Positions 13,649-30,929 of a stretch of 64,000 nucleotides of DNA are shown here, piece by piece. Origin of the DNA: Candidatus Bathyarchaeia archaeon (lineage in GTDB: Archaea > Thermoproteota > Bathyarchaeia > Bathyarchaeales > Bathycorpusculaceae); contig JBEKOM010000006.1 of the NCBI GenBank assembly GCA_049521795.1, forward strand, positions 1 to 64,000, given 5' to 3'. Within the stretch, counting starts at the first letter, position 1. Every line of letters starts with the position of its first letter. The notes beneath the pieces are model-generated. The model ran no database searches. It saw only the letters and a program-made list of their open reading frames with translations, and was not told the DNA's origin. The translations under genes and the position numbers were made by a program.

Positions 13649-14725
13649 ATGGATAGCGAATATTGCGTCAATATTTCAGAGCTTTTCTCTCTGAATTGGA
13701 ACAAGGATCCTTGTATCGATAACAAAGTACTATCTTGCCGTCACCCAAATTTCCATTCTAAGCCCTGCCCAGTTGGAGTTGATTTCTTTCGATTCCCAAG
13801 CGGAGAATTGCGTCTGGATTTTGCATATTGCAACTTAATGTGTTTGCCATGTTGGGCAAAACAATGTCCTCATGAGGAGCATTTCAACTGTTACCAAAAC
13901 GGTTACGGGTTCAAAGCAAGTTTCTCGCCTGAAGAAATAGTGGACAGAATGATTTGCAGGGCCAAGAAATTGAACCAATACGTGGATGCTCAAGAAACAT
14001 TCCAGATTAGAATTACAGGAGGAGAACCCCTTCTTTCTAAACATAGGTGGAATCATGTTGCCGAAATATTGAACATTCTTGACGACAGATTGGACCCTGA
14101 AGAACCGCATTATAGCAAGACGCTCGATAATAGGCTGCATGGTTATGGTAAAAGAAACGGCCCTAAAAAGAAAAGGCTAGTTATTCAAACAAACGGTATC
14201 TCGCTGGGAAAAGTGATCTCCGCAAACGATTTCATGCAGACTGTGAAAAGTCTGACGCAGCTCAATATATTAGTTCATCATTCAATGAAAGGCTGTAAAC
14301 CAGTTGAATTTCATCTCCTTACGGGTGCAGATGAAACTCTGTTCAATCGTCAAATCGAATCGATAGGCGAATTCGAATATCTCAGCAAGTCAATTGACAA
14401 TTTCGATTTTCAAATTGTTCTTGGCTTCTTTCACAGTCAGAAGTACATATTATGGAACCCGGAAGAAAAGGAACCTATGCTGACGGAGCCTGATTCCTCA
14501 TTTCTTGGAGAAGTTAAGAGAAATTGGGAGAGAACATTTGCAGAACCTCTTGATTTTCGTTCAAGAATGATAAACAATGCTCGAACTACAGAAAGATGCT
14601 TCGAGAAAGGCATCGTGAAGGAAAGAAGTCAGCTCAAAAAGAGTACGATATCTGAACTAGAACCCCTTCCATGTCCAGGCAAAAAAACCATGATAAATGG
14701 GACGTTTTGGCGAAAACTGACATAG
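13649..14725 (+). CDS. Radical SAM protein
   Basis: CNLMCLPC (CxxxCxxC), ITGGEP and IQTNG motifs. Confidence 0.85.
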   Translation: MDSEYCVNISELFSLNWNKDPCIDNKVLSCRHPNFHSKPCPVGVDFFRFPSGELRLDFAYCNLMCLPCWAKQCPHEEHFNCYQNGYGFKASFSPEEIVDRMICRAKKLNQYVDAQETFQIRITGGEPLLSKHRWNHVAEILNILDDRLDPEEPHYSKTLDNRLHGYGKRNGPKKKRLVIQTNGISLGKVISANDFMQTVKSLTQLNILVHHSMKGCKPVEFHLLTGADETLFNRQIESIGEFEYLSKSIDNFDFQIVLGFFHSQKYILWNPEEKEPMLTEPDSSFLGEVKRNWERTFAEPLDFRSRMINNARTTERCFEKGIVKERSQLKKSTISELEPLPCPGKKTMINGTFWRKLT

Positions 14726-14839
14726 GTCGCGCTTGAAAGTAACTTCCTCCTCCGTGGAAAACTGAGAGAGTAATTCTCATTACTGAAAAAGCCTATAGGG
14801 ATAGGGAATACTTTAGTCCTACGCGCTGAGGCGACGAGA

Positions 14840-15202
14840 ATGTCAGGTCAGTCATTTGAAGAGAAGAATTTGAGGGAATATGCGTTAGGTCATTTAGATA
14901 TTATTGAAGTTGGCTTGTCGCTGGCACAATATAATGAAGCGCGCGCGGCTATCGAGGTTGGGTTCGGCAAGATTATAGAGAAATTCCTTCCGGCCTACAG
15001 AGATCTTGACCTGCAGTTTACTGAGTGCAGGCCTCTTTACGATCCTATAGATGTTTTGGTTTTCAGTGGGTTGTTGAACAGGAAAGTTGACAGCATCACT
15101 TTCTTGGAGATAAAGTCTGGAAATGCCAAGCTGAATAACCATCAGAAGATGATAAGAGACGCTGTACTGGACAAGAACGTCGACATGAGGGTTCTCAAAT
15201 GA
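14840..15202 (+). pseudogene. Chimeric/N-truncated Holliday-junction-resolvase-like endonuclease (Endonuc_Holl type)
   Basis: C-terminal GKIIEKFLP..DPIDVLVFSGL..FLEIKSG motif; the first 33 codons look unrelated and join at GCGCGCGCG 14939-14947. Confidence 0.65.
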
Positions 15203-15705
15203 CGGAACTGATCGACGTCTTCCAAACGTTCAGAAAGATTCTTTGCGTGTGCCCATGCCGCAATCAGATCGTAAGGTTGAGTGACCTTCATCTCAAATAC
15301 GGTGGCAGAGCACCTAAGACCTGGCTTGACAAGCATGAGCTTCAACTCTTAAGGCTGCAGGAAAGAGTGGCAGCTTTTGAAGAAAAAGAAAAGGAATTGC
15401 GCGAGCAATCTGTGGACCGCGGCAGAAAGAAAGTGCCTTCAATAGTGAGAAAATGCTTATGCTCTGAATTCAGCAAACTAGAGTACGACCCATATGACAT
15501 TAAGGCAGTCATGGATCCTGTAGATTTCGTCGTGTTCGACGGACTCAACGAAGGAGAAGAGGTAAGGAGAATAACGTTTCTAACTCGAAAACCTAGCCCA
15601 AACATGAGAACGGTCACTGAATCCATGGGAAAAACGGTGAAGCAAGGCAGCTACGACTGGAAAGTGGCACGCATAAACACATCGGGAAAAGTAAGTCTCG
15701 AATGA
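15199..15705 (+). CDS. Holliday-junction-resolvase-like protein (second gene of the pair)
   Basis: N-terminal CVCPC, coiled coil, DPVDFVVFDGL motif; ATGA-coupled. Confidence 0.75.
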   Translation: MTELIDVFQTFRKILCVCPCRNQIVRLSDLHLKYGGRAPKTWLDKHELQLLRLQERVAAFEEKEKELREQSVDRGRKKVPSIVRKCLCSEFSKLEYDPYDIKAVMDPVDFVVFDGLNEGEEVRRITFLTRKPSPNMRTVTESMGKTVKQGSYDWKVARINTSGKVSLE

Positions 15706-15879
15706 GCGCGCGCTCCTATGCGGAGGGCTCTCACCGATTGGCCAACACTTTGACGATCTAGTCTTAGCCACAGTCTCATCAGAGTTACCTACATTGAAAT
15801 CTGTATACGGTACAGTGACGAAGATCCAACAGTTGCTCATCTTAGACAGACCTTCGCAGCCGTTGGATACATAAACGGC

Positions 15880-16542
15880 TTACGTTTGCTGTTTATATTT
15901 GCATAAGCTTGCTAGAGGGCAATCTATGCATAATGGTTTCTTCAGTCTACAATATGCTGCTGCTATGTCAAGTAGACCTAGACTAACATGCTTAGAGTTC
16001 TCTGGAGATGATTGAAGAATATTCGAAACAAGACTCCAGAGCGATTTGTCCGAATAGGCACGTCTGCCCTCGCGTCTTCCAAGTATTCGGCAAAGCAGCC
16101 TACCAACTGCTCCATCAACCATCGGAAACGGGCGTTCAAAAGCAACGCAGTCGACCGCGTTTGCGATGTATTGACCAACTCCCTTGAATTTTCGAAGAGA
16201 TTGACCTGACTCTATGATTGCTTTGTTACTTCGCAAAGCTCGGGCAATGTCAGATAGCTGCGAACCCCTTGTTGACAGACCTAAAGGTCCTATTATTGCA
16301 CACACTTCTGTAGGATCAGCTTCGGCCAATGCTTCAAAATTGGGATATGATTGGATAAGTTTAAGGAACACCGGCAATACTCTGAAGGTTTGAGTCTTTC
16401 TCAGTAAGAACTCAGCCAACAAAACCGTGTATGGATCCTTGGTCTCACGCCAAGGATAACGCCGACCACGGGTCCTATAGTACTCAGAACAAATTCCGGA
16501 TATTTCATTTAGGCTTGCGAACCTTTCACCTGTCCTTTTTTT
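15880..16542 (-). CDS. HhH-GPD [4Fe-4S] glycosylase, MutY/Mig (T:G mismatch) type; 5' end lacks an in-frame start
   Basis: RRYPWRETKDPY, KGVGQYIA, PMVDG and CRLKKPLCIDCPLASLC (FCL motif); the open frame extends to 16542 but the first TTG is at 16422. Confidence 0.8.
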   Translation of the reverse strand, partial: KKRTGERFASLNEISGICSEYYRTRGRRYPWRETKDPYTVLLAEFLLRKTQTFRVLPVFLKLIQSYPNFEALAEADPTEVCAIIGPLGLSTRGSQLSDIARALRSNKAIIESGQSLRKFKGVGQYIANAVDCVAFERPFPMVDGAVGRLLCRILGRREGRRAYSDKSLWSLVSNILQSSPENSKHVSLGLLDIAAAYCRLKKPLCIDCPLASLCKYKQQT

Positions 16543-16553
16543 TCAAATAGAGA

Positions 16554-17891
16554 TCAACTGGTTTTCGAAAGTAGTTCCTTTAGAGCCTGGAGCCATGTTT
16601 CTGTTGGTTCGTCTATAGGAGCCATCAAAGGCCTGCGTAAAGCAAGGCTCTCGGCATAGGCGACTAGCCAAAGCTTTGCTAACTTCTCTCTTTCAGTAGT
16701 CTTGAAGCGGCTAGCTTGTAGTGTCACCCACTCTTGCAGGCGCAAGATGACTATTTTCACTTCGAATTCCTCCTGCAGTTCGGTCATCTTGTCAGTTACA
16801 TCATCGCGCAGATCCGGCTTTGTCTCAGTCACGAAGCCAACAATTCGCAGTTCAGGAAACTGCTCCTGAGAAAGTTTGTCATGCAATTCTAGCAATTCGT
16901 CGTACAGGTATGGTTTTCCGTATTTTGCGTCCCATGCTTCAGCGATCGCGTCTGCTTGGGTTAGTTCTATGTCTGCAATATTGCCGGCCTTCTTGTTCGC
17001 TTGCCTCATTTGAGAGAGGGTTCTTAATTCCAATGCTCCCAAGCCACCCAATGTCTTAATAGCTTGCATCAACGAGTGCATCCCGACCTCAAGCAAGCGT
17101 GCTGCAGGCAGACCGGGGTTCGCCATGTGTTTGATAAGTAATGTCAAAACTTGTTCAAGGTTCTTGACTGCGGCTGATTTCTTTCTAGCCAAGTCGACTA
17201 CTTCGGTAGCAAGGTCCTGAAATTGTTTGGACCTCTTAATCAGAAGGCATAAGGAATATTCAAGAGCTGTTTTTGCGTCGATCTTATTGGCTTCCAGAAG
17301 ATCGACAAGCTCTGTCCATTCTCTTTTGGCACCGCGTATAGCTGCTTTGTAGAATTTCGTATAGGGATAGTTTTCCGCTAGACTGCGTGTCATCATTACT
17401 CCATATTTGTTTACCTTGAGTAAATTCTCTTTTCGCAGAAATGGAGTAACGAATCCTGAGTCTAAAACCCTCATAGGGACTCCTTCCGCCCAAGAAAAGC
17501 TCCCTCGACCGGATTTGTGAAGCCTTACGCTCTGTTTTGGTTCAATCGCTTTTGTAGCCATCTGGAGGATTGCCAAACCAACAATGGCTCTTCCCACTTC
17601 GCTTGTTATGGCATCCACGAGCTTTTTCAACATCTCTTTGTGGTCATCACTAATTCTTTCGAAATCGACTTTGCCTTCCTTGCAACGCTTGATAACTGAG
17701 TCGAGAAAACCTTCAGTAAACCTCTTTCGAATGTAATCTGCACGTTTTTGGGCTTCTCTTGTCTGACTTCCTTCTCGGAAGACTTGAAGTCTTCTGCCGT
17801 CTTTTTCGTACAAGATTGAGCGATCGTCGTATATTCTTAAATGGGGGAGAGTGGGATCTTCGTCCGAGTCTATATTTACCTGCTTCGTCAA
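16554..17891 (-). CDS. Putative type II restriction endonuclease (PD-(D/E)xK)
   Basis: Coupled to the C5-MTase; GNIADIEL...AWDAK nuclease-like motif. Confidence 0.6.
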   Translation of the reverse strand: MTKQVNIDSDEDPTLPHLRIYDDRSILYEKDGRRLQVFREGSQTREAQKRADYIRKRFTEGFLDSVIKRCKEGKVDFERISDDHKEMLKKLVDAITSEVGRAIVGLAILQMATKAIEPKQSVRLHKSGRGSFSWAEGVPMRVLDSGFVTPFLRKENLLKVNKYGVMMTRSLAENYPYTKFYKAAIRGAKREWTELVDLLEANKIDAKTALEYSLCLLIKRSKQFQDLATEVVDLARKKSAAVKNLEQVLTLLIKHMANPGLPAARLLEVGMHSLMQAIKTLGGLGALELRTLSQMRQANKKAGNIADIELTQADAIAEAWDAKYGKPYLYDELLELHDKLSQEQFPELRIVGFVTETKPDLRDDVTDKMTELQEEFEVKIVILRLQEWVTLQASRFKTTEREKLAKLWLVAYAESLALRRPLMAPIDEPTETWLQALKELLSKTS

Positions 17892-19891
17892 GAGAGATCT
17901 ACCTCTAGGTGTTTTCTCAACTGCACGCTATTAGGATTGAGTGTAGGGAATGAGTATGGAACAAGGTAATGACCTTGTGGTATGTTCAAGTTTGTGCTTT
18001 GCCCCCGGACCTCATATCCCAATTTGCGCAGCTGCTTCAGCCCATGCCGGACTTGTTCTTGGGATACTCGAAACAAGCTAGCTAGTGCTTCAAGGGAAAG
18101 AATCCGTCTAATCGCGACTCCTTCCACGACTTTTCTTACCAACTGCCAATTCTCTCCGTCTTCAATGGACATCTTCACGGCAAAGTGAGGTAAGTATTGA
18201 TAGTATCCGCAGAGCTGGACTAGATCTGCTTTAAGGTTGGTCTCAACCAAGAATTGCTCAAAAGCCTTCCACAAGCCCGTAAACACCTTAGGACGTAAAG
18301 GTGAACCTACTAGTCTAACGCTTTGTAATGGAATGTCCCAGCCAGCTCTTGAAGGCCCAACCGTCATAACGCAACCACCTAAGGAATCTGACTCATTACC
18401 TAGTTCTCTGCTGTGGACTTCAACCGACAACAAGCTGCTGGACAATTTTGCAGTCACGAACAACTCTGACTCTCGTTCTGGGCAAACTCTCCACGTAAAG
18501 TCATCCATGTTCATCTTTGCATAATAGGCCGTGGAGAAGTCTAAAGGTAGTTTTTCGGTTTTTCTAGTGGGCAAGGCAGTAAGTAGTTTTATCGCTTTTG
18601 TAGCCTTGGTTTGGTAGATCTTTGTCAGTTCTCTTTTGCGCCTCCTGAATGAAAGTGGTTCATATGGAGCAAGCAACTTGATATCTGCTGTTATTTGAGC
18701 CTTCCAAACCTGCTTCAGCAGACTTAGCGCTAACATGCGAGCCAGCTGCGGAGGCACGGAATTTCCTATTTGTGTTATGGCAGTTTGTTTATTGCCTACG
18801 ATGATGTATTCATCAGGAATTGTGTGTAGCCGCTTAAGTTCAGCCACAGAAAAAGGCCGATTTTCCCAGTGAAAAGGACCTGTGTATAACCCGCCAGTTG
18901 CTTTCAGCGTCCTGATGGGCTCTTTAGGGTCGGCTTTGTACAGAAAATCGGAGAACTTCGAACGCCAGGCGAAAATTGGCCTAGGATGGCCCATTCTGGA
19001 AGTGTAGAAAGAGTAATTCAGTCCAGGCGGCACGTCCTTTAGCAGATATCCCCATCGCCCTCCAATCGGCCCTGGTTTCTCTTCCTCACATAGATCACGG
19101 AGTGCCTCTTCAGCGACATAATAAGGATGCTGGTCGGGTGAGTCGGGACCATGAGTAGGCTTGGGGAACAAGAACTGCATGCCTTGCACTCCAACAGCGA
19201 TAAGCCTTTCCCTATGTTGAGGAACACCATAATCTGCAGCATCAAGTATTCTGTGGGTCACGGTGTAACCCAGCTCTGCAAAATCAGATAAAACCGCTTT
19301 CCATGTGTCACCGTTTTGCACCCCGGTCAAGCCATACACGTTCTCAAAGAGAAAGGCAGTCGGACGAACTGACTCAATTACTTCTATGAACTGTTTGTAC
19401 AACTCTCCTCGAGCATCCAACAGTCCTGGGGCGCCTGCTGCTCTTCGACCTGCAGCTGAAAAGGATTGGCAAGGAGGTCCACCTAGTACAAGATCAATTT
19501 TGCTTGCGCTTGGAGGTTCGTAATCACCTATGTCTTTACATAAAATCTTGGAATTCCTGAAGTATGTTCCCTTGTTCTTATTTGCTTCTAGGGTTTCGGC
19601 AAAAGTCTCGTCGATCTCAACCATTTCGACATTCTCGAAGCATGCATCATCGAACCCAATGTCCAATCCGCCTCCACCAGTGAATAGGCTAATAGTCTTA
19701 AGGGGGAATTCCAGAGCCTTTATCCGTAAGCGCAACGCTTTGCCAAAGGCATTAGGCCATCCGGGTTCTTCAGACACACCAAGCGATTTAAGCAGTGTAT
19801 CAAGATAACCTGGCTCCGCTTCGGCACCTGGCAGTTTCGCTAACTTCAATTGTGAACTGCGACTTACTCTCTGTTCAGCCAGGTATGTCAC
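17888..19891 (-). CDS. DNA (cytosine-5)-methyltransferase with C-terminal extension
   Basis: FTGGGG (I), GGPPCQSFS (IV), ENV (VI), QHRER (VIII), IGNSVPP (X). Confidence 0.93.
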   Translation of the reverse strand: MTYLAEQRVSRSSQLKLAKLPGAEAEPGYLDTLLKSLGVSEEPGWPNAFGKALRLRIKALEFPLKTISLFTGGGGLDIGFDDACFENVEMVEIDETFAETLEANKNKGTYFRNSKILCKDIGDYEPPSASKIDLVLGGPPCQSFSAAGRRAAGAPGLLDARGELYKQFIEVIESVRPTAFLFENVYGLTGVQNGDTWKAVLSDFAELGYTVTHRILDAADYGVPQHRERLIAVGVQGMQFLFPKPTHGPDSPDQHPYYVAEEALRDLCEEEKPGPIGGRWGYLLKDVPPGLNYSFYTSRMGHPRPIFAWRSKFSDFLYKADPKEPIRTLKATGGLYTGPFHWENRPFSVAELKRLHTIPDEYIIVGNKQTAITQIGNSVPPQLARMLALSLLKQVWKAQITADIKLLAPYEPLSFRRRKRELTKIYQTKATKAIKLLTALPTRKTEKLPLDFSTAYYAKMNMDDFTWRVCPERESELFVTAKLSSSLLSVEVHSRELGNESDSLGGCVMTVGPSRAGWDIPLQSVRLVGSPLRPKVFTGLWKAFEQFLVETNLKADLVQLCGYYQYLPHFAVKMSIEDGENWQLVRKVVEGVAIRRILSLEALASLFRVSQEQVRHGLKQLRKLGYEVRGQSTNLNIPQGHYLVPYSFPTLNPNSVQLRKHLEVDLS

Positions 19892-20001
19892 ACTCCCATT
19901 TACTATTCTATGAGGAGATATTAATCTCTTAATTTTTCTCTAGCAATCATTGAGGTCGTATTTTTGAGGAACTTCGTTACTATCCACAGCGCGCGCTTTC
20001 A

Positions 20002-20334
20002 CTATCGTGTGTTAGTTATATCGTGCTTTTTTCTTGCTTTCTTGGGTTTGCGGTCGGGCAACTTCTTTTCACGCAGCCAAGTCAACCTAAAGCGTATTGC
20101 ATCTTCTATGAACTCTTCCTTGGTAGCATAGCCCAATTGCGAATTGCCTTTTATGAAGCTTTCAGCCTGTTCAAGAAGATCTCGAGACAGTGTCACCGAC
20201 CTGCTTAACAATGCCTCCACAGCATCAGAGTAGGTCTTCATCTGACCCGTCTCTGCCATAAGCCTTCCAACAACCGAAGTCAATTTTGCATGAGTCTCAT
20301 CAGAAATTTTCAGCGTCTTCAAGGCAAATCCCAA
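20002..20334 (-). CDS. Small ribbon-helix-helix-type DNA-binding protein
   Basis: KTLKISDETHAKL and second TKEEFIEDAIR RHH-like segments. Confidence 0.6.
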   Translation of the reverse strand: MGFALKTLKISDETHAKLTSVVGRLMAETGQMKTYSDAVEALLSRSVTLSRDLLEQAESFIKGNSQLGYATKEEFIEDAIRFRLTWLREKKLPDRKPKKARKKHDITNTR

Positions 20335-20418
20335 TTTCTACATTATCAGTTTCAGAAGATAATCCTTCGCACAGGAAAGCGTGCGTCACTTTAACTCTAC
20401 TCTCTCTATAGCCTGGTA

Positions 20419-20718
20419 ATGTCGTTGGAACGCTGTCCTTTTAACGGTTCTAATCAAAGCGAAGAGAAGGAGAAAGAAGTTATGCAGCGGAAGAGGCTAG
20501 CTGTCTTTCAAAGGGTCGACGATAAGAAGTTTGATGATGACATGTTTGTTGACTTAACAATCTACGATGTTCCAGCAGGCCTGCTCAGAGAGTTCGGCGA
20601 GAAGGTAGTTCACTCCAACTACCCAAGCGGAGTCAACGAAGCAATCAAGGACCTACTGCGAAAAGCCATAATGGACCAACAGTCATCCCGCAATGAGACA
20701 AGTGTTCCAGCCCTGTAG
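20419..20718 (+). CDS. Small hypothetical (RHH-like) protein
   Basis: GVNEAIKDLLRKAI helix; probable start 20482. Confidence 0.5.
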   Translation: MSLERCPFNGSNQSEEKEKEVMQRKRLAVFQRVDDKKFDDDMFVDLTIYDVPAGLLREFGEKVVHSNYPSGVNEAIKDLLRKAIMDQQSSRNETSVPAL

Positions 20719-20736
20719 AATTAGACGTAGGAGTTT

Positions 20737-20991
20737 TTGCATAATTTGGTTCGAATCCAGCGCAGAGTCTCAAAGAAACACTACCTGAAGGCGAAACGCA
20801 CCTACGAGTACGAGCGCATGACTCTAGACTTACCCAAGAAGTTCCACGAGACTCTCAAGCCATTTCTGGAGAAGGAACTCAACATTGACGTTAAGCTGCA
20901 AAACGATGTCGCAGTCATCTCTTTGTCCCCCGTGAAAACGTTTCGGCACGCAGAAAACACCCCCGACAAAACACCTTCAGAAACCAGCTAG
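20737..20991 (+). CDS. Small AbrB/SpoVT-like hypothetical protein
   Basis: YERMTLDLPKKF...ELNIDVKL pattern; GGAG RBS. Confidence 0.5.
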   Translation: MHNLVRIQRRVSKKHYLKAKRTYEYERMTLDLPKKFHETLKPFLEKELNIDVKLQNDVAVISLSPVKTFRHAENTPDKTPSETS

Positions 20992-21092
20992 GACACGCTC
21001 TTACAACATCAAGATACAGATTCTGTTTATATATCTGCCCGCCGAAACATTTCTCCCCTAGCAGATTTCTGCCTGCAGAAACGTTTTCCCCC
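20930..21092. repeat. Three ~25-bp repeats: one inverted and two direct copies around an AT-rich spot
   Basis: 21034-21058 TCTGCCCGCCGAAACATTTCTCCCC; 21068-21092 TCTGCCTGCAGAAACGTTTTCCCCC; reverse complement of 20930-20954 TCTGCGTGCCGAAACGTTTTCACGG. The first and third each match the 21068 copy at 20/25. Confidence 0.75.
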
Positions 21093-21184
21093 AGACCTGT
21101 GAACACAAAAATGTGTAAATTAACGTGAAAAGGACCTTCCGCACATAGTTCTGATTTTACCGACAGTGCCGGTCAGCGAATGAA

Positions 21185-21607
21185 GTGCCCAAACCCAAAA
21201 ACACAAGGCTATCCGTATTCAAAGGCAGAGAAGCCAAACTCAATCGTGCCATTTTTCAAGTTCTCGCCTTCAAAGGCCCACAGACTATCTACGGCATACA
21301 CGCCCAGGTGAAGACACTACGAAGTCTGAGGAATATGAGATACGCAAATGTCAACGTACGAGTGAGGAAGCTTCAGGAGTCAGGTTACTTGAACATAACA
21401 GGTGCTAGGAAAACAAAGGCTGGTTTTGAAGCATCAATATATGACCTGGCAGCTAAGGCCTATTCTGCACTCTTCCTCAACGCAATTAGCTTAGAAGAGC
21501 TACTTTCTTGGCTAAACGAAGGAACTGCATACCGGCTCATTGGAGATATCATCGAGATCATGGGAAATCATCAGGCTCACAAGGAGGCTAGTTCACATCG
21601 GTCTTAA
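21185..21607 (+). CDS. Winged-helix transcriptional regulator
   Basis: GPQTIYGIH...YANVNVRVRKLQESGYL wHTH pattern. Confidence 0.7.
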   Translation: MPKPKNTRLSVFKGREAKLNRAIFQVLAFKGPQTIYGIHAQVKTLRSLRNMRYANVNVRVRKLQESGYLNITGARKTKAGFEASIYDLAAKAYSALFLNAISLEELLSWLNEGTAYRLIGDIIEIMGNHQAHKEASSHRS

Positions 21608-21831
21608 CTCGACGACTCTCCAAAAGTAGAAAACTGTTACGTACTTAAGGACGAACCAGAGGGATACAATTCATTAATGGAGACTTGAACTCCAGAGTCT
21701 CAAGGTTCATAGCGAAATCGACTAGAATGAAATCAATGCACGCGCTCTGGCCATTGTTCGTCCAGAGAAAAACTGAAACGAACAAGGATGCTCTCTTGCT
21801 TAGAAAACACTTATTATTTGATCAGACATAG

Positions 21832-23772
21832 ATGCTACTGAATCAGATGTCAATAAAGTTCGTTAGTTCGATAAGAGATCCTGTATATGGAACAATTCCG
21901 ATCACTGAATGTGAGCAAGATGTCCTCAATTTACCTATCCTGAATCGCCTGAGGGGAATAAAGCAACTTGGCCTTGCGTATCTCGCTTTCCCAGGAGCAA
22001 ACCACACGAGGTTTGAGCATTCATTAGGCACCATGCACGTTGCTTCTTTGATGTGTCAGAGCCTAGATATCGATGAACATAATACCCAACTAATAAGGTT
22101 GGCAGCCTTACTGCACGACGTGGGGCACTCTCCATTCTCACATACACTGGAATTGGCTTTTAACATGTTCAGAGGCGAGTTTGAGGGAGTGCCTGTAGAT
22201 AGTCTATCTCATGAAAATTGGACTTATCGCAAGATAATGAAAGATAAAGATCTTGCGGAGGCAATTAAGAACCATCTGGGGGTTGCGCATAATAAAGACA
22301 TTGCAAAGCTCGCAGTAGGCAAATACGGAAATAGGATTTTTGATTCGGTCTTGCAGAGCCCTATTGATGCGGACAAGACAGACTATATTCTAAGGGACAA
22401 CCTGCATTGTGGCTTTCCTGTCGCTTTGGACATAAATACCATTAGTGAGATTCTTGCCAAGGATGAAGACTTCGGTTTTATAGTAAAAGCAGAAGGAATT
22501 TCCTTTGTGGAGCAACTTTTAATTGGGAGATATCATTTGATCACGAAGATTCATCATAATAAGAAGAACAGAACAGGCAACTATCTGATGGCATTGAGCC
22601 TGAGAGATGCTATCAAAATCATAGAAAGAGAGGAGCTTCCGAAGGAAATCAACCGAATTTTCGAAATGAACGATTATGAACTGTATTATTTCCTAAAGGA
22701 TAAACTAGGTGAGAAGTTCAAGCCTCTTAATGATTTCCTCATGGGCAAAGAAACATTGAGAGAGCTGTATAATTTTGACTATTCTATCCTGACACCGATG
22801 GCTAGGTTCAATGCTTCAATAGTTTCAGCAAGGAAGCATCTTCTTCCTGAAATATCCAAACAGCTGCAGACCAAGACTCACTCCAAAGACATATTTGTTG
22901 ATATCAATCAAGCAAAACTACCGGACTTAGACCTTTGGGTGTATGATCCATCTGGGCAAAAGATTCCTATTTTAGAGACTCCCATGGTCCATGGAATTGT
23001 TAAGACTTCCTTATCTTGGTTACAAATAGCTTTGTATGCTTTCAAAGAGAACGGAAATGGCCCGGACATTAAGGAAGTCAAGAGGTTATATCGGGAGCTG
23101 GATGAAAAGGTCGATGAGAAATTCGAGCAGAATTTGAAGAATTTTGCTGATGAAAAAACCTATGGCACGTTTCTTTTGGTTGACCTACTTTTGAATAAGA
23201 TGACGAAGTCTCTTCACAAGACTGAAGTGACAGGAGAAGACATTCTGATAATCGTATTCAAAGCAATCTATCAGCTATTGGCCAATGAATTCAAAGGTTC
23301 TCACTTGTTCATAGATGGGGCTTCAAACTTTGTTGCTTTGGTAAATATCATACAAGAGAAGGAATCGATATTCTCTCCCATGAAAGAGAGAGTCATATTG
23401 AAGAAATACGACTTGCAAGGCAGAACACCAGAAAAGTTGCCCTCAGACATTTTCGTTGACATCGAGAAACTCGTGAATTTCGGCATGCTCTACAGAAAAG
23501 AGGAGGTAGTGAAGTTCCGGAAGTTCTACAACAAGAAGCAACAGATCCGACTTTCAGGTTGGGGTCGCAGTTATCACGAGAAAAACTTGGAAAAGAACAA
23601 GGAAATCGCAAAACTCTGCGACAGAGTGTATCAATGCTTGCTGAAGTACGTGGAAAAGGATAGAGAGCAAATTGCGAAATATATCCAAACCTCGGAAGTT
23701 CCAAAGGACGACAAGATAAAGAAGGAAAGAGAAAATATCAGAGCAAAGACCTTTTTCAGAATAACAAGATAG
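21832..23772 (+). CDS. HD-domain dNTP triphosphohydrolase-like protein (SAMHD1/dGTPase family) with a long C-terminal extension
   Basis: IRDPVYG, RLRGIKQLG, HTRFEHSLG, LLHDVGHSPFSH and DADKTDYILRD motifs. Confidence 0.88.
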   Translation: MLLNQMSIKFVSSIRDPVYGTIPITECEQDVLNLPILNRLRGIKQLGLAYLAFPGANHTRFEHSLGTMHVASLMCQSLDIDEHNTQLIRLAALLHDVGHSPFSHTLELAFNMFRGEFEGVPVDSLSHENWTYRKIMKDKDLAEAIKNHLGVAHNKDIAKLAVGKYGNRIFDSVLQSPIDADKTDYILRDNLHCGFPVALDINTISEILAKDEDFGFIVKAEGISFVEQLLIGRYHLITKIHHNKKNRTGNYLMALSLRDAIKIIEREELPKEINRIFEMNDYELYYFLKDKLGEKFKPLNDFLMGKETLRELYNFDYSILTPMARFNASIVSARKHLLPEISKQLQTKTHSKDIFVDINQAKLPDLDLWVYDPSGQKIPILETPMVHGIVKTSLSWLQIALYAFKENGNGPDIKEVKRLYRELDEKVDEKFEQNLKNFADEKTYGTFLLVDLLLNKMTKSLHKTEVTGEDILIIVFKAIYQLLANEFKGSHLFIDGASNFVALVNIIQEKESIFSPMKERVILKKYDLQGRTPEKLPSDIFVDIEKLVNFGMLYRKEEVVKFRKFYNKKQQIRLSGWGRSYHEKNLEKNKEIAKLCDRVYQCLLKYVEKDREQIAKYIQTSEVPKDDKIKKERENIRAKTFFRITR

Positions 23773-23983
23773 ATTTGTTCTACTTTTCAATGTTGCTGCA
23801 GCGAGAGCGGAAACAAAACTTATATGTCAGAATGTCCTTAGTATAACATGCTATTTCTGTTATCCTGGTACATACGTCGTAAATATAATTTTCATGCGGG
23901 TTTTTGCAAGGAATTTGCATGCCAACATTATGAGCAAAAATAGCGTTTTGATATTAAGTCAACAGGGGTAAATAACTTTTGTG

Positions 23984-24195
23984 GAACAGTGTTCTATATG
24001 TTCAATCATTTTACTGTTGGTTTTATCTTATCTCTAAAAATGGGACCTCTGAGGATTACTCTCCCATAGCCGTATTTCTTGACTTGCACTGTTCATTTCT
24101 TGTGCGCCCAAGATATGTCCGCTCATAGATACTGTTCTTAAACACGCTCAGCAAAGAACACTATTCTTTGGGAACCAGTCCAAAGAACACTGTCT
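23984..24195. promoter_or_regulatory. Array of five GAACA-n-TGTTC-like palindromic operators
   Basis: 23984-94 GAACAGTGTTC, 24084-94 TTGCACTGTTC, 24127-37 AGATACTGTTC, 24156-66 GAACACTATTC, 24185-95 GAACACTGTCT; upstream of a CTTAAA TATA-like box (~24216). Confidence 0.6.
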
Positions 24196-24544: not shown

Positions 24545-25078
24545 TTGGCTAAGGTTGAGAGCTTGAAGATCTACACAGATGACCGTCTGGTGCCGTACAA
24601 GAATACGACAATCGATCCGTTGAGTACGAAGGCTGAAATTGACGGCTTGCTGGCTCGATGGGGTATCCGCCAAGTTTTCTGGGACTGGAACCCCGAAAAG
24701 AGCAGCGTTGTGCTTCTTTTCAAGCTGCCTGAAACTTTCGGCAACATTCAGCCAAGCGTTCGATTGGAGCCTCCGCGCATATGGACAAAAGGCAACAGAA
24801 AACGGAACGAAGAGATCAACTGGGCCGTTTCAATGCGCGTGCTGTTCTGGTTTCTCAAAAGCTTCCTGGAAGCTGCCTACCTTATGCAGTTTGACAAAAC
24901 CACTGCTTTTCTGCCTTGGATCGTTGGCTCAGACGGAAAGACGCAGCTGAAGGACGTCATTATTCCTAGGCTCGGCCGAATCAGCGATTTCCAAGCACTG
25001 CCTACCGAAGACCAGGTGCGAGAAGAAGAAAAATGGATGGCCAAAAAGATCGTCGACATGCCGAGACCAAACGAATAA
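24545..25078 (+). CDS. Hypothetical mobile-element protein
   Basis: 177 aa, YKNTTIDPLSTKAEIDGLLARWG start; co-oriented with the integrase. Confidence 0.7.
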   Translation: MAKVESLKIYTDDRLVPYKNTTIDPLSTKAEIDGLLARWGIRQVFWDWNPEKSSVVLLFKLPETFGNIQPSVRLEPPRIWTKGNRKRNEEINWAVSMRVLFWFLKSFLEAAYLMQFDKTTAFLPWIVGSDGKTQLKDVIIPRLGRISDFQALPTEDQVREEEKWMAKKIVDMPRPNE

Positions 25079-25101
25079 TGATTTTGCATTGTTGGGAGAG
25101 A

Positions 25102-26424
25102 ATGGCTGACTTTCACATCGAACCGCAGAGTAACGGTCACGTACTTGGCAAAGCCAGTTCTAAAGGCGGAAAGTCGGGTGTGTTTGCTGCATCCGCTGGC
25201 GTCAGCCCTCTATGCCCCGAATGCGGGTCTCAGAAAGTATGGCGGGATGGCCTGCGGAATTCTCTGTTCGGGCACAAGATCCAAAGGTGGCTTTGTCGCA
25301 ACTGTGGCTTCCGGTTTTCTGACTCTGAAAACGTTCAGAGGAGTTTCAGCACGTTTGAGCGCGTTGAGAGAGTTGGTAGGGACTCATTAAAAGCCAGATT
25401 TGGCATAGTTAGTGATAGCCAAATACGCGTTACGAAGGCAGAAGGAACGAAAAATTTGGCCTCAGCAACAGAAACTCAGACTGTTGCTGGAGATAGAAAA
25501 CTGGACAAGGCAACCGCAAAAGGGCTCCTGCTGCAGTATTCACTCTACCTTCAGAAGGAAGGCTACGGAGAAAACTGCAGTTACGTGAACTGCATACGAA
25601 CGCTGATAAACTCAGAAGGCTGCAACATCTACGACCCTGAGAACGTCAAAGAAGTCATTGGAAAGAAGAAATGGAAAGACGGGACAAAAATGATGACTTG
25701 CTACGCCTACGATGCGTTCACAAGAATGGCCGGTCTAAGCTGGGCCATGCCCACCTACCGACAGGAAGAGTATCTCTTCTTCCTACCTGAAGAAAACGAA
25801 CTTGACACTCTCATCAACGCCTCGAGAAGCGCCAGAATGAGAACATACCTACAATGTCTCAAAGAAACTTTCGGCGACCCAAGTGAAGTTCTAGGCATAC
25901 GCTGGGAAGACGTAGACGCACACCGAAGCGTCATAGCCATAAACCATCCGGTGAAAGGCCACAACGCCGGAGAGCTAGAGGTTAGCCCCCGTCTTTTACA
26001 CATGCTCGACGCGTTACCCAAGACCTCAAAACTCATCTTTCCCACCACCTACAGAAACATGCTAGCAACATACGTGAAACTACGAAAAAGACTAGCTCAC
26101 AACCTTCAAAACCCAAGAATGCTGAGCATCAGCTTCGTCAGTTTCAGACATTGGGCAGGAACACAATTGGCATGGCTCTTCAACGGCAACATGCTCATAG
26201 TGAAAGAAAAGCTAAGACACAAGGACATCAATAGCACAATGAAATACGTTAGAAGAATAAAGCTCACACTACCTGAAGACTTTGACGTCTTTACCGCGAG
26301 CACTGATGAAGAAATCAAGAAGATGGGCATCCTGGGAGCCCAGAAATACGATGAACGCACAATTGGGGCGACAACTATCAGCTACTACAGGAGACCCAAA
26401 AGGTTCGGAAGCATCAAAGTATGA
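25102..26424 (+). CDS. Tyrosine recombinase/integrase with N-terminal zinc ribbon
   Basis: CPECG..CRNCG ribbon; ETFGDPSE (box I), VKG, SFRHW and LRHKDINSTMKY (box II Tyr). Frame open from 25033; start at 25102 after GGGAGAG. Confidence 0.88.
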   Translation: MADFHIEPQSNGHVLGKASSKGGKSGVFAASAGVSPLCPECGSQKVWRDGLRNSLFGHKIQRWLCRNCGFRFSDSENVQRSFSTFERVERVGRDSLKARFGIVSDSQIRVTKAEGTKNLASATETQTVAGDRKLDKATAKGLLLQYSLYLQKEGYGENCSYVNCIRTLINSEGCNIYDPENVKEVIGKKKWKDGTKMMTCYAYDAFTRMAGLSWAMPTYRQEEYLFFLPEENELDTLINASRSARMRTYLQCLKETFGDPSEVLGIRWEDVDAHRSVIAINHPVKGHNAGELEVSPRLLHMLDALPKTSKLIFPTTYRNMLATYVKLRKRLAHNLQNPRMLSISFVSFRHWAGTQLAWLFNGNMLIVKEKLRHKDINSTMKYVRRIKLTLPEDFDVFTASTDEEIKKMGILGAQKYDERTIGATTISYYRRPKRFGSIKV

Positions 26425-26513
26425 CGTTTAAAGCCCGAACACATACCTCTACGCCTTTAAACCCTTACTCCTAAATAATACGCTTACGGTTTCCAAGGGT
26501 TGGAGAGAAAAGG

Positions 26514-28724
26514 TTGTCTGTTCCCCAACGGGTCCGCGGGGTCAGGATACTGAAGGCTGTCTCCTCACCTTTGAGGCTGCAGATCTTAAACCTGCTTTTT
26601 GACGAGGGCCCGCTCTCCTACACCGAACTGATGGGTTCCCTCAAGATGAACCCCAGCAGGGATGCCGGAAGGTTTGCGTACCACCTGAAATTCCTGCTCA
26701 AGGCGGACCTGATTGAAGCGGACGTCGAGGCAAGGAAATACTGCCTAACCGAACTTGGGAAGATGGTCATTGATGTTGCGGACAAGATTGACAAAAAAGC
26801 CTTCAAGCCCAGAAGCGCACTTGTTCGCACGAGCCGTCCTGCACTTGAAGAGTTTGACGCTAACAAGATCGCGAGTTCCTTGACAAGAGAAGCGAAGATG
26901 CCTGCCGAGCTTGCGCAAAGGGTGGCCAAAGAAGCAGAGAAACAGCTGATTCGGTCAAGAACGAAGTATTTGACTGCTCCACTCGTGAGAGAGGTCGTGA
27001 ACGCGATCTTGATAGAGAAAGGCTTGGAAGAGTACCGACACAAGCTCACACGGGTGGGGATACCTGTTCACGACGTAACCAGTCTGTTAGAATCGAGGAA
27101 CAGAAATCTTTACGAAACGGTCTCAGCCCAGGAATCAGCCGGTGAAACAGTCTTCAAGGAGTACACGCTGCTAAACGTTCTCCCAAGAGACATTTCAGAT
27201 GCTCACTTGTCAGGTTCCCTGCACATCAACGGCCTAAGCTCATGGATCCTGAAGCCCAGCGAAATATTGCACGACCTCAGATTCTTCTTAGGAAACGGTT
27301 TAGACCTAGAGAGAATTAACCCGCTGCAACAAGGCCAATCAGCACCTCGAGACTTGCAGGCCGCGCTGTCTTTGACCTTCAACGCTCTTCTGCACAGCGG
27401 TAAAGAAGTCGACACGTCGCAGACACTCGACTACTTTAACGTGTTCCTAGCCCCGTTCGCTAAGGATGCTGAACCCTCTAAGGTCAAAGAAGCTTTGCGG
27501 TTGTTCACTGCAAGCCTGGCTCAGCACACGCGTGTTTCGCTAGGCCTAGAGCTGACTGTTCCAGACTTCTTGGCCGAGAAGCAAGCGGTGGGACCGGATG
27601 GAAAGCACGTCGGCACCTACGCAGAATTCACCGAGCAGGTCCAGCTTTTGGCATCTCTCTTGCTTGACGTCTTCGCTGAAGAAGGCGGCTGTAAACCGCT
27701 GACGAACCCAGAGCTCATCCTGAAAATACGCGCAGAAACCACCTCGAATGAGAGAGCAAGGGCGTTGCTGCTGAAAGCTCACAGCTTGGCTTCAGAAAGA
27801 GGCGTTCTATACTTTGCTAACGCGTTCAAGAAGGAGAGGAAACGTTCTGTTTTTTCTTCATCAGGGCTTCTGCTCGACGCAGATTTGAACGGCGACTGGG
27901 AAACTGATACGTTACGCACCGGGTGTCTCGGAGTTGTAACGATCAATGTTCCGCGGATTGCGCTTGAATCGTGTGGAGACCAGACGAAATTCCTTGAATT
28001 TCTGAAGGAAAGGATTGAGATGGCAAACAGGGCCCTAGAAATCAAACATCGGGCCCTGACCCATCGCGGCGAGAATCTGCTGCCGTTTATCATGCAAGGC
28101 GGCAATGGTGACCAGTACTTCAGACTTGAAAGCTGTTCTCGCATAGTAAACTTGGCGGGGTTGAAACAGGGTGCTGAAATGTTCTGCGGAAAGAATGCTG
28201 AAGACGCAAAAACATTGAACTTCTCCGAGGAAATCGCACGAGACGTTTCAGATTACGTTCAGAAGATCGGCAGAAGACGCGGAAAACGCTTATCCACCGC
28301 GATGCTTCCCAACCGCGAAGCTTCTGAGAGACTAGCCCAATTGGACATCGAAAGGTATGGAGTTGCGAAAGTGAAATTTTCAGGCCTGAGAGAGAAGCCT
28401 TTCTACTCCACTGTCAACCGAATACCGATTATCGACGGACGGGTCGCAGAAGAAGCGTTGACGTTTGAAGACAAGCTGGCCGGAGCGCATGTTGGTGGAA
28501 GCCTAACGGTCGTCGACCTTGGCGAGAGCAAGCACGAACCTGAAGAGCTTATGACAATTACGAAACAGCTCACCGAAAGTCACAACGTAGACGTCTTCAC
28601 TTATGACCGCAAACTCACCTACTGCGTCAACTGCAAGAAAAGCTGTTTCGGCCTACTGCACAAGTGCCCCTCATGCGGAGCAGTCGGTACGTTGGCCTTC
28701 CTTGACAGGTTCATGGGCACCTGA
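26514..28724 (+). CDS. ArsR-type HTH + ATP-cone + class III ribonucleotide-reductase (NrdD)-like fusion, probably catalytically inactive
   Basis: SSPLRLQILNLL..FAYHL HTH; ATP cone EEFDANKI..APLVREVV; NrdD-like HDLRFF, TINVPRIA, C-terminal CxxC..CPSCG. Confidence 0.85.
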   Translation: MSVPQRVRGVRILKAVSSPLRLQILNLLFDEGPLSYTELMGSLKMNPSRDAGRFAYHLKFLLKADLIEADVEARKYCLTELGKMVIDVADKIDKKAFKPRSALVRTSRPALEEFDANKIASSLTREAKMPAELAQRVAKEAEKQLIRSRTKYLTAPLVREVVNAILIEKGLEEYRHKLTRVGIPVHDVTSLLESRNRNLYETVSAQESAGETVFKEYTLLNVLPRDISDAHLSGSLHINGLSSWILKPSEILHDLRFFLGNGLDLERINPLQQGQSAPRDLQAALSLTFNALLHSGKEVDTSQTLDYFNVFLAPFAKDAEPSKVKEALRLFTASLAQHTRVSLGLELTVPDFLAEKQAVGPDGKHVGTYAEFTEQVQLLASLLLDVFAEEGGCKPLTNPELILKIRAETTSNERARALLLKAHSLASERGVLYFANAFKKERKRSVFSSSGLLLDADLNGDWETDTLRTGCLGVVTINVPRIALESCGDQTKFLEFLKERIEMANRALEIKHRALTHRGENLLPFIMQGGNGDQYFRLESCSRIVNLAGLKQGAEMFCGKNAEDAKTLNFSEEIARDVSDYVQKIGRRRGKRLSTAMLPNREASERLAQLDIERYGVAKVKFSGLREKPFYSTVNRIPIIDGRVAEEALTFEDKLAGAHVGGSLTVVDLGESKHEPEELMTITKQLTESHNVDVFTYDRKLTYCVNCKKSCFGLLHKCPSCGAVGTLAFLDRFMGT

Positions 28725-29772: not shown

Positions 29773-30240
29773 TTACATTCTTGTTAAAGATTTTTCGTAG
29801 TCAACAACGATGCATTTCTTGCCTTTCCGAATCACCTTGTGTCCCTCTTTCTCCAATAGCTTTCTTTGTCCTTCAACTCCCCCTGGATACTTCTCGTTTA
29901 TCACTCCGCCAACTTTCAAAGTGCGCCAGTAAGGCGTAATTTCCTTGCCCTTTACAGCTTGTTCTTCTGCAGCCCCAGCTGCGATGCGAGCAAAGATGCC
30001 CGTCGTGATGGGACAACCGATTGAAGCACTGTGTTTCCTCGCTAATGCTTCGCGAATCTCATTTATCGTAGTAACTTTACCTTCGGGCACCTTCCTCATG
30101 ATTTCATCAACTTCCTTCGGTGCCGGGATGACCACTGTGCCTGTGCCCCACCTCTTTTTCATCTTAGCAGTGATCTTCTCAACTCTTGGCAAACCCTTAC
30201 CGTCCTCGAGCTTTTCAGACCAACTCTTTTTCCCTGGCAC
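29773..30240 (-). CDS. Alkyltransferase-like (MGMT DNA-binding domain) protein
   Basis: VPEGKVTT and TPYWRTL (no PCHR cysteine). Confidence 0.8.
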   Translation of the reverse strand: MPGKKSWSEKLEDGKGLPRVEKITAKMKKRWGTGTVVIPAPKEVDEIMRKVPEGKVTTINEIREALARKHSASIGCPITTGIFARIAAGAAEEQAVKGKEITPYWRTLKVGGVINEKYPGGVEGQRKLLEKEGHKVIRKGKKCIVVDYEKSLTRM

Positions 30241-30458
30241 GTTATCCCCGAATCCAGTTTTCAGCCATTCCTAATAAGCCTTGAGACTCGTTCACAGCAC
30301 AAATCGACACGCTCACTTCATCTTGCGACTTCAGAAAACCCCTAAAGAATCTGGCGGTCTCAATTCTATTCACAATTGGAAAAGCCTCACTCCCCCAGAG
30401 ATTAAAGTCTTTTATCTGCGGTTGTGGTATTACCGTTTTCTTGGAAGGGGGTTTCGAA

Positions 30459-30929
30459 ATGACCGAGACTGAGTTGCGGGTTTCAAAGATCAAGGATGGC
30501 ACGGTTATCGATCACATAACGAGAGGACACGCGTTGGACGTTGTCAAGATTCTGGGCATCACAGGAAACGACAAGGGCCCTATCACGATCGCCATTAATG
30601 TTCCGAGTAAGCGGTTAAAGACGAAGGACATCGTCAAGATAGAGGGCAGGGAGTTGAAGCCACAGGAGGTTCACAAGATAGCCTTGATCGCGCCGCATGC
30701 TAGCATCAACATCGTTCGCGACTACAAAGTCATAAGAAAGGAAGAGGTGAAGCTGCCAAGCGTCATTGACAACATTATCAAGTGTGCTAACCCAGCTTGC
30801 ATAAGCAACAGCAATGAGCCTGTCAAGGCCAGGTTCTACGTTGAATGCGAGGAACCGCTGTCATTGAAGTGCCACTACTGCGGCTACATTGTCGAGAAGA
30901 AAGATGTGTTGCAACAGTTTTGGTATTAG
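30459..30929 (+). CDS. pyrI: Aspartate carbamoyltransferase regulatory subunit
   Basis: IKDGTVIDHI, KDIVKIE, CANPACIS and CHYC zinc site. Confidence 0.97.
   Translation: MTETELRVSKIKDGTVIDHITRGHALDVVKILGITGNDKGPITIAINVPSKRLKTKDIVKIEGRELKPQEVHKIALIAPHASINIVRDYKVIRKEEVKLPSVIDNIIKCANPACISNSNEPVKARFYVECEEPLSLKCHYCGYIVEKKDVLQQFWY

Follow-up and report, generated by a model that had tools for sequence, protein, structure and literature searches.

The locus considered here raises the question of what is done by a protein in which a DNA-binding domain is joined to the body of a class III ribonucleotide reductase (RNR), NrdD. The gene lies at 26514..28724 on the + strand of a 64,000-nucleotide stretch of DNA from a Candidatus Bathyarchaeia archaeon (contig JBEKOM010000006.1, assembly GCA_049521795.1), and this whole stretch is referred to as the window. 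The encoded protein, here called pseudo-NrdD, combines an N-terminal winged helix-turn-helix (wHTH) domain, an ATP cone, and an NrdD-type barrel with a zinc ribbon. We consider it probable, with moderate confidence, that this catalytically dead descendant of an archaeal class III RNR, joined to an ArsR/SmtB-type wHTH, would serve as a transcription regulator that senses nucleotides and acts on RNR and pyrimidine genes, and that it arose independently of NrdR, the zinc-ribbon and ATP-cone repressor of bacterial RNR operons. That reading is drawn from the catalytic loss, from the constraint on the wHTH and cone, and from the repeated placement of the gene before RNR genes of two classes and beside pyrBI or deaminase genes. 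In what follows G000 denotes the genome of the window, and G, f, L, and P numbers are the genome, family, locus, and protein labels of this analysis. The gene and its parts are the following.

26514..28724, + strand: wHTH/ATP-cone/pseudo-NrdD gene, 736 amino acids, TTG start, stop codon included
26514..26804, + strand: ArsR/SmtB-type wHTH, residues 1-97 (α1-α5 and a β wing), assigned from Pfam, the structural model, and selection on the codons
26814..27101, + strand: variant ATP cone and linker helix, residues 101-196, with the hairpin V-R-T-S-R and not V-x-K-R-D-G
27111..28613, + strand: NrdD-type α/β barrel, residues 200-700, without catalytic residues, assigned from alignments and the fold match
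28623..28676, + strand: zinc ribbon with C704, C707, C718, and C721, its cysteines kept across the family
28677..28721, + strand: remnant of the glycyl-radical domain, shortened to end in DRFMGT, one residue past the glycine column

This order of domains had been proposed in an earlier, sequence-only reading of the DNA and was borne out by Pfam and by structural models. The wHTH is matched by HTH_5 at 28.1 bits (cut-off 22) and by DUF7347 at 30.1 bits (cut-off 27.6), the cone by ATP-cone at 28.9 bits (cut-off 25.8; residues 104-174), and the remainder by NRDD (PF13597) at 209.6 bits (cut-off 26.2; residues 202-734). The NCBIfam equivalog model for NrdD, TIGR02487, gives 231.9 bits, under its cut-off of 326.35, and the remaining NrdD equivalogs give 30-129 bits against cut-offs of 545-764. 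The Pfam scan of pseudo-NrdD returned no match to the NrdR zinc ribbon PF22811.

The active NrdD of G000 itself, encoded on contig C2, was used as the reference for residue checks. The two proteins were compared using BLASTP (23% identity, E = 7e-31) and MAFFT, the family profile was aligned with chains from the Protein Data Bank (PDB), and columns were counted in 31 close and 55 diverse family members. Glu250 occupies the position of the first catalytic cysteine (AYCVGWD of the active enzyme opposite KPSEILHD), and cysteine appears in this column in 0/31 close and 0/55 diverse members. The cysteine that carries the thiyl radical, Cys416 at the tip of the finger loop in P. copri NrdD according to PMC11226230, is replaced by serine (SMCCRL opposite FSSSGL, residues 447-452). 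Each finger-loop column contains cysteine in 0-2 of the 55 members, and none of these is conserved. In the alignment of the 55-member profile with solved NrdDs, the catalytic cysteines of S. thermophilus and P. copri fall in insert columns that the family lacks. The absence of both cysteines, as first read from the letters of the window, is therefore supported by all three alignments.

The elements that hold the substrate and the glycyl radical are missing as well. The HxHD motif holds the substrate triphosphate and the NxN flap shuts over the substrate, as described in PMC11226230. In pseudo-NrdD the sequence LHING (HING at 237-240) stands opposite MHIHD of the active enzyme, HxHD is found in 0/31 and 0/55 members, and the flap KENANLQ of aligned active archaeal NrdDs is missing from the family. 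Past the zinc ribbon the active G000 enzyme continues with SRVVGYLRPV and 38 further residues; pseudo-NrdD ends in RFMGT and a stop, one residue beyond the glycine column, as had been proposed. That column is Gly in 8/31 close and 15/55 diverse members, is followed by an aromatic residue (G[YF]) in 0/31 and 1/55, and has Ala/Ser as its family consensus in the profile alignment with solved NrdDs. The tail beyond it is a single residue in 30/31 close members. The Glu of the PAE motif is likewise lost, the substitutes at the lost catalytic positions vary between members, and the former active-site columns contain no conserved polar residues. The four cysteines of the zinc ribbon are present in 55/55 members and align with the zinc-site cysteines of the T. 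maritima and P. copri enzymes, and N478, R606, and D611 are conserved in the barrel. No radical-SAM activase, the NrdG partner whose gene is usually adjacent to nrdD, was found among the neighboring genes, in agreement with the sequence-only reading; the only one found adjoins the active nrdD on contig C2. Judged from these comparisons, pseudo-NrdD is a catalytically dead NrdD from which every element of radical chemistry and substrate binding is gone, and its standing as a pseudo-enzyme is borne out by sequence and fold alike.

Cys471, in the motif RTGCLG, had been named as a residue that might accept the radical and was considered as a cryptic radical cysteine. It aligns with Asn435 of P. 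copri NrdD on a strand of the barrel and not with the finger loop, and the position is Cys in only 11/55 family members; this candidate was rejected. Six further NrdD-like proteins without catalytic cysteines and without a winged helix were also encountered (P0183, P0189, P0190, P0246, P0256, and P0265). Pfam was applied to three of them and found two ATP-cone stretches each in P0183 and P0246 and none in P0189. In a quick tree, five of the six fall within the active NrdDs, a position that suggests that activity was lost independently, and P0189 falls just outside the active clade.

A full-length AlphaFold2 model was built on 31 family sequences, with a mean pLDDT of 71.7 and values of 80-95 in the blocks of the barrel. 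The top Foldseek matches of this model are class III RNRs (9d3x, 8p2s, 4coj, and 1h79; E 1e-24 to 1e-17), followed by other glycyl-radical enzymes of the pyruvate formate-lyase type. Residues 1-204 were modeled separately on 58 sequences, with a pLDDT of 80.7 for the whole model and of 89-93 for its winged helix. The winged helix, with helices at 5-15, 19-31, 36-42, 51-63, and 80-96 and the wing at 67-78, is best matched by HlyU, CzrA, SmtB, CadC, BigR, and NolR with target TM scores of 0.7-0.79. The second half of this model, with the cone hairpin at 103-113 and helices at 116-126, 131-147, 155-168, and 172-178, aligns with the NrdR structures 9fvr, 9fxk, 9gex, and 9a6n. Foldseek E values for the model of residues 1-204 are modest (4e-3 to 3e-2) because the query spans two domains. 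A structure prediction for two copies of residues 1-204 gave a score of 0.01, which weighs neither for nor against dimerization.

The selection acting on the gene was estimated as the ratio of nonsynonymous to synonymous substitution rates (dN/dS) using the Nei-Gojobori method against three orthologues of ~90% identity. It comes to 0.13-0.17 for the whole gene; by domain, the wHTH has a ratio of 0.01-0.02, the cone with its linker 0.06-0.12, and the barrel 0.17-0.23. The pseudo-NrdD gene is under purifying selection and is not decaying. Most of the residues that stay invariant across 24-90% identity belong to the winged helix or the cone/linker. The barrel scores just 55-76 bits against Pfam NRDD in three genomes of f39, and the N-terminal module is still matched at E ~1e-47.

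The cone carries a variant hairpin, V104-R105-T106-S107-R108, where canonical cones have V-x-K-R-D-G. According to PMC12662201, the phosphate contacts of the cone are Lys9/Arg10 in E. coli RNR and Lys19/Arg20 in S. thermophilus NrdD; the E. coli cone also uses Glu15, Lys21, and Ile22, the last two of which are matched by Lys31 and Ile32 in S. thermophilus. The equivalents of these Glu, Lys, and Ile residues are kept in the family: E112 in 52/55 members, K118 (as K or R) in 55/55, and I119 in 55/55. Arg105 is found in 55/55 and Arg108 in 32/55, and V104, R105, F114, I119, R175, and R180 are invariant in all 55. Active NrdDs encoded beside family members begin with a cone domain of the pattern VRTS[RK]..F..F..KI...L[ST]APLIRE...TR[LV]G.P..D[AV]. 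The VRTSK/R variant is thus shared with the adjacent active NrdDs, which marks it as a trait of the lineage that came down from a functional enzyme, and not as decay of a pseudo-enzyme.

A pseudo-NrdD-type match was found in 39/41 related genomes, and the two without one are 64-65% complete. Some match occurs in 177/201 sampled genomes of the class, 137 of them strong (E <= 1e-80) and 40 weak, as is typical of active NrdD. The phylum was surveyed with residues 1-200 alone at E <= 1e-25, a threshold that separates the family from active NrdD because the cone of an active neighbor scored only 5.5e-17. This N-terminal module is present in 189/301 sampled genomes, including 43/43 in f39, many of them closed, and was found in 0/20 genomes of f48, 0/13 of f40, 0/10 of f54, and 0/10 of f56. 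A protein search returned at least 120 matches from Bathyarchaeia with 63-92% identity and the same Pfam architecture. An exhaustive search of 50%-identity representatives gave 1801 proteins at E <= 1e-3, of which 336 reached E <= 1e-30; among the matches listed, many have an N-terminal extension of ~90 residues and lack the catalytic motifs, and Baldrarchaeota, Nitrososphaerales, and Ca. Terraquivivens are among the names of the clusters. When a Nitrososphaerales member was used as the query, 4643 proteins at E <= 1e-30 were found among the 8000 scored, with names that include Thaumarchaeota and Methylarchaceae and with some entries from Tara samples. Public labels for these proteins usually name an active enzyme but are inconsistent, and include 'anaerobic ribonucleoside-triphosphate reductase', the same with '(formate)', and 'ArsR family (transcriptional) regulator'.

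A quick, unrooted maximum-likelihood tree (65 rows, LG+G4) places all active NrdDs on one side of a single branch, starred in the tree, and the wHTH proteins on the opposite side with longer branches. This topology fits an old single split between active NrdDs and wHTH proteins, with the order of events unproven. The tree does not support, as stated, the idea that the family stems from a recent tandem duplication of the nrdD beside it. At L054 (9059-14065, - strand) one open frame of 1668 amino acids covers both a P-type cation ATPase and a family member (NRDD at 1124-1665). It may be a read-through by the ORF caller, two in-frame genes with no stop between them, or a real fusion; it was treated as a read-through.

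The features that surround the gene in the window are as follows.

26454..26464, + strand: core promoter with the TATA-like box CCTTTAAACCC (box core CCTTTAAAC), ~55 nt 5' of the start codon
28748..29695, - strand: pyrB, aspartate carbamoyltransferase (ATCase) catalytic chain, Pfam OTCace_N and OTCace, convergent with the gene, a conserved syntenic partner and a possible target
30441..30929, + strand: pyrI, ATCase regulatory chain, Pfam PyrI and PyrI_C, which recurs in the neighborhoods of other loci

The start codon, TTG or GTG, is unchanged in position in 11/11 close orthologues examined, and a (C/G)TTTAAAC block lies at equal distance 5' of orthologues throughout the order. Homology of G000 to its relatives begins ~75 nt 5' of the gene start. 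Downstream, in order, are the convergent pyrB, 23 nt away and described as convergent in the sequence-only reading as well, an MGMT-like DNA_binding_1 gene, and pyrI; a tyrosine-recombinase ORF lies upstream.

Gene order was compared in several sets of loci. Among 48 Bathyarchaeia loci, 23 have an RNR gene as the next gene downstream in the same orientation (21 nrdD and 2 class I/II-type, PF02867), and 17 of these 23 were picked knowing that a second match lay nearby (8 + 7 + 2 from three tables). The 21 downstream nrdD genes encode the motifs RPFCQ[ED][HW]D, QCC, and TGYYQ and are often preceded by a small glutaredoxin or thioredoxin gene, and pyrB comes right after the RNR gene in 12 of the 23 loci. 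In the rest of the 48, pyrB is first in 14 and neither RNR nor pyrB is seen in 11. For the 31 Bathyarchaeia loci that were picked without knowledge of neighbors, RNR lies downstream in 6 and pyrB/pyrI within 3 genes downstream in 17.

In the other classes of the phylum, 20 more loci were picked by family only. Four of these, all from f39, have an 880-889-residue PF02867 RNR with an ATP cone directly downstream; pyrB/pyrI occurs within 3 genes downstream in 6/20, dCTP deaminase at +1 in 1/20, a carbamoyltransferase at -1 in 2/20, and none of these genes in 7/20. The 51 blind loci combined have RNR downstream in 10 and pyrB/pyrI within 3 genes downstream in 23, and genes for dCTP or dCMP deaminase are nearby in 3 loci. 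The 79 closest public Bathyarchaeia loci were chosen on similarity alone, and 4 of them end without downstream sequence. Of the 75 with a downstream ORF, 67 have a convergent pyrB at +1, 4 have pyrB preceded by a short NrdD-like ORF that is probably the split C-terminal part of the pseudo-NrdD gene, 2 have pyrB within +3, and 2 are different. These orders point to an ancestral layout for the class of regulator-like gene, (glutaredoxin/thioredoxin) nrdD, convergent pyrB, and pyrI. The family of the window appears to have lost the middle gene, keeping the convergent pyrB, with nrdD in a separate operon.

Several other observations were made in these neighborhoods. A glutaredoxin gene precedes the active nrdD in L019-L022 and L060, and a thioredoxin-like gene follows it in L026, L033, and L042. 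These redoxin-adjacent nrdD genes encode a Cys-Cys finger-loop motif, QCCRL or QCCAY, which we take to fit the redoxin-dependent and not the formate-dependent type of NrdD. In the window, the tyrosine-recombinase ORF (25033-26424, + strand; Phage_integrase with an InsA-like zinc ribbon) ends 89 nt before the gene start, and an integrase is found in 0/79 close public loci. In relatives, the opposite strand encodes a tRNA (Rfam, 51.7 bits) ~110 nt 5' of the gene; in G000 the corresponding sequence lies on contig C16 (10670-10706). The GC content of the window is 0.40-0.45 between 14 and 24 kb, and a 646-residue HD-domain protein (21832-23772, + strand) is encoded in the stretch of lowest GC (0.396), inside the putative insertion. 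The upstream region (~14000-24000 and 25033-26424) has the appearance of an integrated element, or of a rearrangement that took place at a tRNA. Between pyrB and pyrI, a 155-residue ORF (29773-30240, - strand, the strand of pyrB) has only the DNA-binding domain of O6-methylguanine methyltransferase (PF01035, 29 bits).

Pseudo-NrdD is not the only RNR-type protein of its genome. G000 (2.44 Mb in 69 contigs, 98.75% complete, 4.37% contamination) has a further NRDD match, at 651 bits, on contig C2, where an operon encodes NrdR (Zn_ribbon_NrdR and ATP-cone), an NrdD of 710 amino acids (ATP-cone and NRDD), and the radical-SAM activase NrdG. The PF22811 match of G000 is this separate gene, at C2:165445. 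The second, complete nrdD that the sequence-only reading had proposed to look for is therefore present together with nrdG, and a class II-type RNR is encoded elsewhere in G000. RNRs of class I/II type were likewise found in G045, G051, G042, and G061 (4/4 tested). The Pfam NRDD model was applied to 10 genomes that are 96-100% complete, and pseudo-NrdD is the only NRDD match in 8 of them (G045, G051, G061, G066, G232, G242, G263, and G247); G042 and G238 have an active NrdD besides.

In this archaeon the arrangement on C2 (G000:C2:164745-169469, L001, 701-3950), with nrdR, nrdD, and nrdG in one operon, is of bacterial style. Of the 41 relatives, 26 have NrdR (PF22811), namely G000, 23/24 other genomes of its family, G027, and G036, and it adjoins the separately placed nrdD where coordinates could be compared. 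Among the 41 relatives, NrdR was not found in the genomes in which nrdD follows the pseudo-NrdD gene. It was found in 0/5 genomes from f39, f45, and f52, and in bacteria only among 14 control genomes. The nrdR-nrdD-nrdG cassette may have been acquired horizontally and have replaced a native nrdD.

Operators were sought in the upstream regions. Inverted repeats and shared words upstream of the gene in 18 genomes revealed no operator, none was found between the pseudo-NrdD gene and the downstream nrdD or nrdJ, and no NrdR-box-like repeats were identified. A ~40-nt AT-rich block (TACAnnATTTTATAC, 7-9 nt, and TCTAAAAAATT) is conserved upstream of the glutaredoxin-nrdD unit in several families of one order and sits within the first 40-200 nt past the stop codon of the family gene (L015-L022, L025, and L060). 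Its outer arms, AATTTT and AAAATT, are ~17 nt apart and together make an imperfect inverted repeat. The block is most simply a core promoter, composed of a TATA box and a proximal AT-rich element, and an operator is also conceivable. As a core promoter it only shows that the downstream nrdD has its own promoter.

In the mechanism proposed for pseudo-NrdD as a regulator, the winged helices would bind promoter DNA of nucleotide-supply genes, those for RNR and probably pyrBI. The former enzyme body would provide the sensor and a scaffold for oligomerization. The cone would most likely bind adenine nucleotides (ATP/dATP), and the former specificity site could possibly take dNTPs. Nucleotide binding would then shift the conformation or the oligomeric state, and hence DNA binding, as in NrdR. 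The transcription-regulator claim of the sequence-only reading has gained indirect support from selection on the wHTH, from the ArsR/SmtB-like and NrdR-like halves of the model, and from RNR and pyrBI adjacency elsewhere, and the operator search gave it none. Of the RNR allosteric sites said to be reused, at most the well-conserved cone can be pointed to, and the substrate site has been dismantled. A wider version is put forward tentatively, as possible rather than probable: the family could be an archaeal master regulator of DNA-precursor supply that reads ATP/dATP at the cone, and possibly dNTPs at the specificity site, and steers whichever RNR class is present together with pyrBI across Bathyarchaeia, Nitrososphaeria (including Nitrososphaerales and Thaumarchaeota labels, some marine), and Baldrarchaeota.

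Several results weigh against assigning this regulatory role to pseudo-NrdD. The Lys-Arg pair of canonical cones is replaced in the alignment by Thr106/Ser107 (Thr in 47/55 and Ser in 52/55 members), and with these residues at the phosphate-contact positions nucleotide binding by the cone is not assured. A search of the promoters in front of nrdR, pyrB, pyrI, and the class II-type RNR gene of G000 turned up no motif in common, and no operator was found that RNR or pyr promoters share with the promoter of the pseudo-NrdD gene. A genuine NrdR already precedes nrdD in G000, and in the window the pseudo-NrdD gene adjoins no RNR gene. The sample that shows RNR adjacency was partly preselected (17/23), and related genomes share synteny by descent. 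The gene is also in pieces or has internal stops in a few genomes (G021, G008, G070, and G191).

Four other explanations were weighed against this regulatory reading. A partner without catalytic activity of its own, which would tune the active class III RNR by forming a heterodimer with NrdD or by occupying NrdG, with the wHTH of secondary importance, would account for the retention of the NrdD barrel and zinc ribbon and for the position directly upstream of an active-looking nrdD in 21/48 Bathyarchaeia loci. It was the second suggestion of the sequence-only reading, and it is disfavored because pseudo-NrdD occurs in genomes without any other NrdD, being the only NRDD-family match in 8 of the 10 genomes tested. 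The neighbor is moreover a class I/II-type RNR, which lacks the NrdD dimer interface, in G045, G051, and 4/4 f39 loci (three from the 10-genome test), and the wHTH is the most constrained part of the protein by dN/dS; we regard such a partner as quite improbable. A wHTH regulator that acts mainly on pyrBI or other genes and not on RNR, with its effector at the specificity site of the barrel and not at the cone, comes to mind more readily, since pyrB/pyrI adjacency is commoner than RNR adjacency (23 vs 10 of the 51 blind loci, and 67/75 close loci), the family of the window keeps only pyrB alongside, and the barrel is still under purifying selection. The pyr genes are, however, convergent or on the opposite strand, so that the link to them may be inherited synteny, whereas RNR genes of two classes fill the co-directional downstream slot. 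The barrel is also far less conserved than the cone, as the bit scores of the f39 barrels against the N-terminal E values indicate. A regulator devoted chiefly to pyrBI therefore seems unlikely as a replacement for the RNR role, and a main role at pyrBI may coexist with regulation of RNR.

An enzyme with an unrecognized activity, one that needs neither a glycyl radical nor the two cysteines and is tethered to DNA, would be in keeping with a barrel that is kept over great evolutionary distance (dN/dS ~0.2) and with the conservation of N478, R606, and D611. All known radical and substrate elements are lost, with variable replacements, and no conserved polar residues remain in the former active-site columns; this makes such an activity very improbable. 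A decaying pseudogene or an annotation or assembly artifact would explain the split frames and internal stops in a few metagenome-assembled genomes, and is hardly credible given intact full-length frames in the great majority of genomes across the phylum, an overall dN/dS of 0.13-0.17, and a conserved start-codon position and promoter.

As a regulator, pseudo-NrdD would resemble several known systems in part. With class III NrdD it shares the barrel fold, the order of cone, linker, barrel, and zinc ribbon, and the cone variant of active archaeal NrdDs; unlike NrdD, it lacks both cysteines, HxHD, the NxN flap, the RxxGY motif with its tail, and an adjacent activase, carries an extra N-terminal wHTH, and falls under the NCBIfam equivalog cut-off. 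With NrdR it shares a DNA-binding domain followed by an ATP cone, placement beside RNR genes in many other genomes of a partly preselected sample, though not in the window, an N-terminal model that aligns over the cone, and the proposed nucleotide-dependent binding of DNA. It differs from NrdR in its ArsR-type wHTH, its dead RNR body of ~540 residues, and a cone hairpin without Lys-Arg, and it coexists with a true NrdR in G000. The description as an archaeal analogue of NrdR would fit the similar logic proposed, and has to be qualified in view of the true NrdR that stands beside nrdD in G000 and in 23/24 of its family. The α1-α5 winged helix and the H-L-x-x-L motif of the recognition helix are those of the ArsR/SmtB proteins (HlyU, CzrA, SmtB, CadC, and BigR), which are stand-alone metal- or redox-sensing dimers of ~100 residues, whereas here the domain is fused to a 640-residue enzyme remnant. 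A DNA-binding domain is also fused to an enzyme-fold ligand sensor in MocR/GabR (HTH and an aminotransferase fold), ROK, and BirA; the concept is shared with pseudo-NrdD and the enzyme fold is different.

Full-text searches of openly available papers found no description of a wHTH-NrdD fusion; supplementary tables of RNR phylogenies could list such sequences. No report of an RNR catalytic subunit as the sensor of a transcription factor was found in the texts searched. In the available text of the RNR survey PMC9669993, a term search returned no 'helix-turn-helix', 'inactive', 'winged', or 'DNA-binding', and in that of the survey PMC9531940 no 'helix-turn-helix', 'inactive', or 'non-functional'.

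The enzyme label carried by many family members would lead to a wrong inference of anaerobic dNTP synthesis wherever the NrdD-like gene is the only one, as in 8 of the 10 genomes tested. If the regulatory reading of pseudo-NrdD is true, the family would show clearly how a whole radical enzyme can be put to new use as the sensing part of a transcription factor. Cultured representatives exist in the lineages to which some members appear to belong, which makes experimental work feasible. Most archaea are without NrdR, and the family is a testable candidate for the regulation of dNTP synthesis in many of them.

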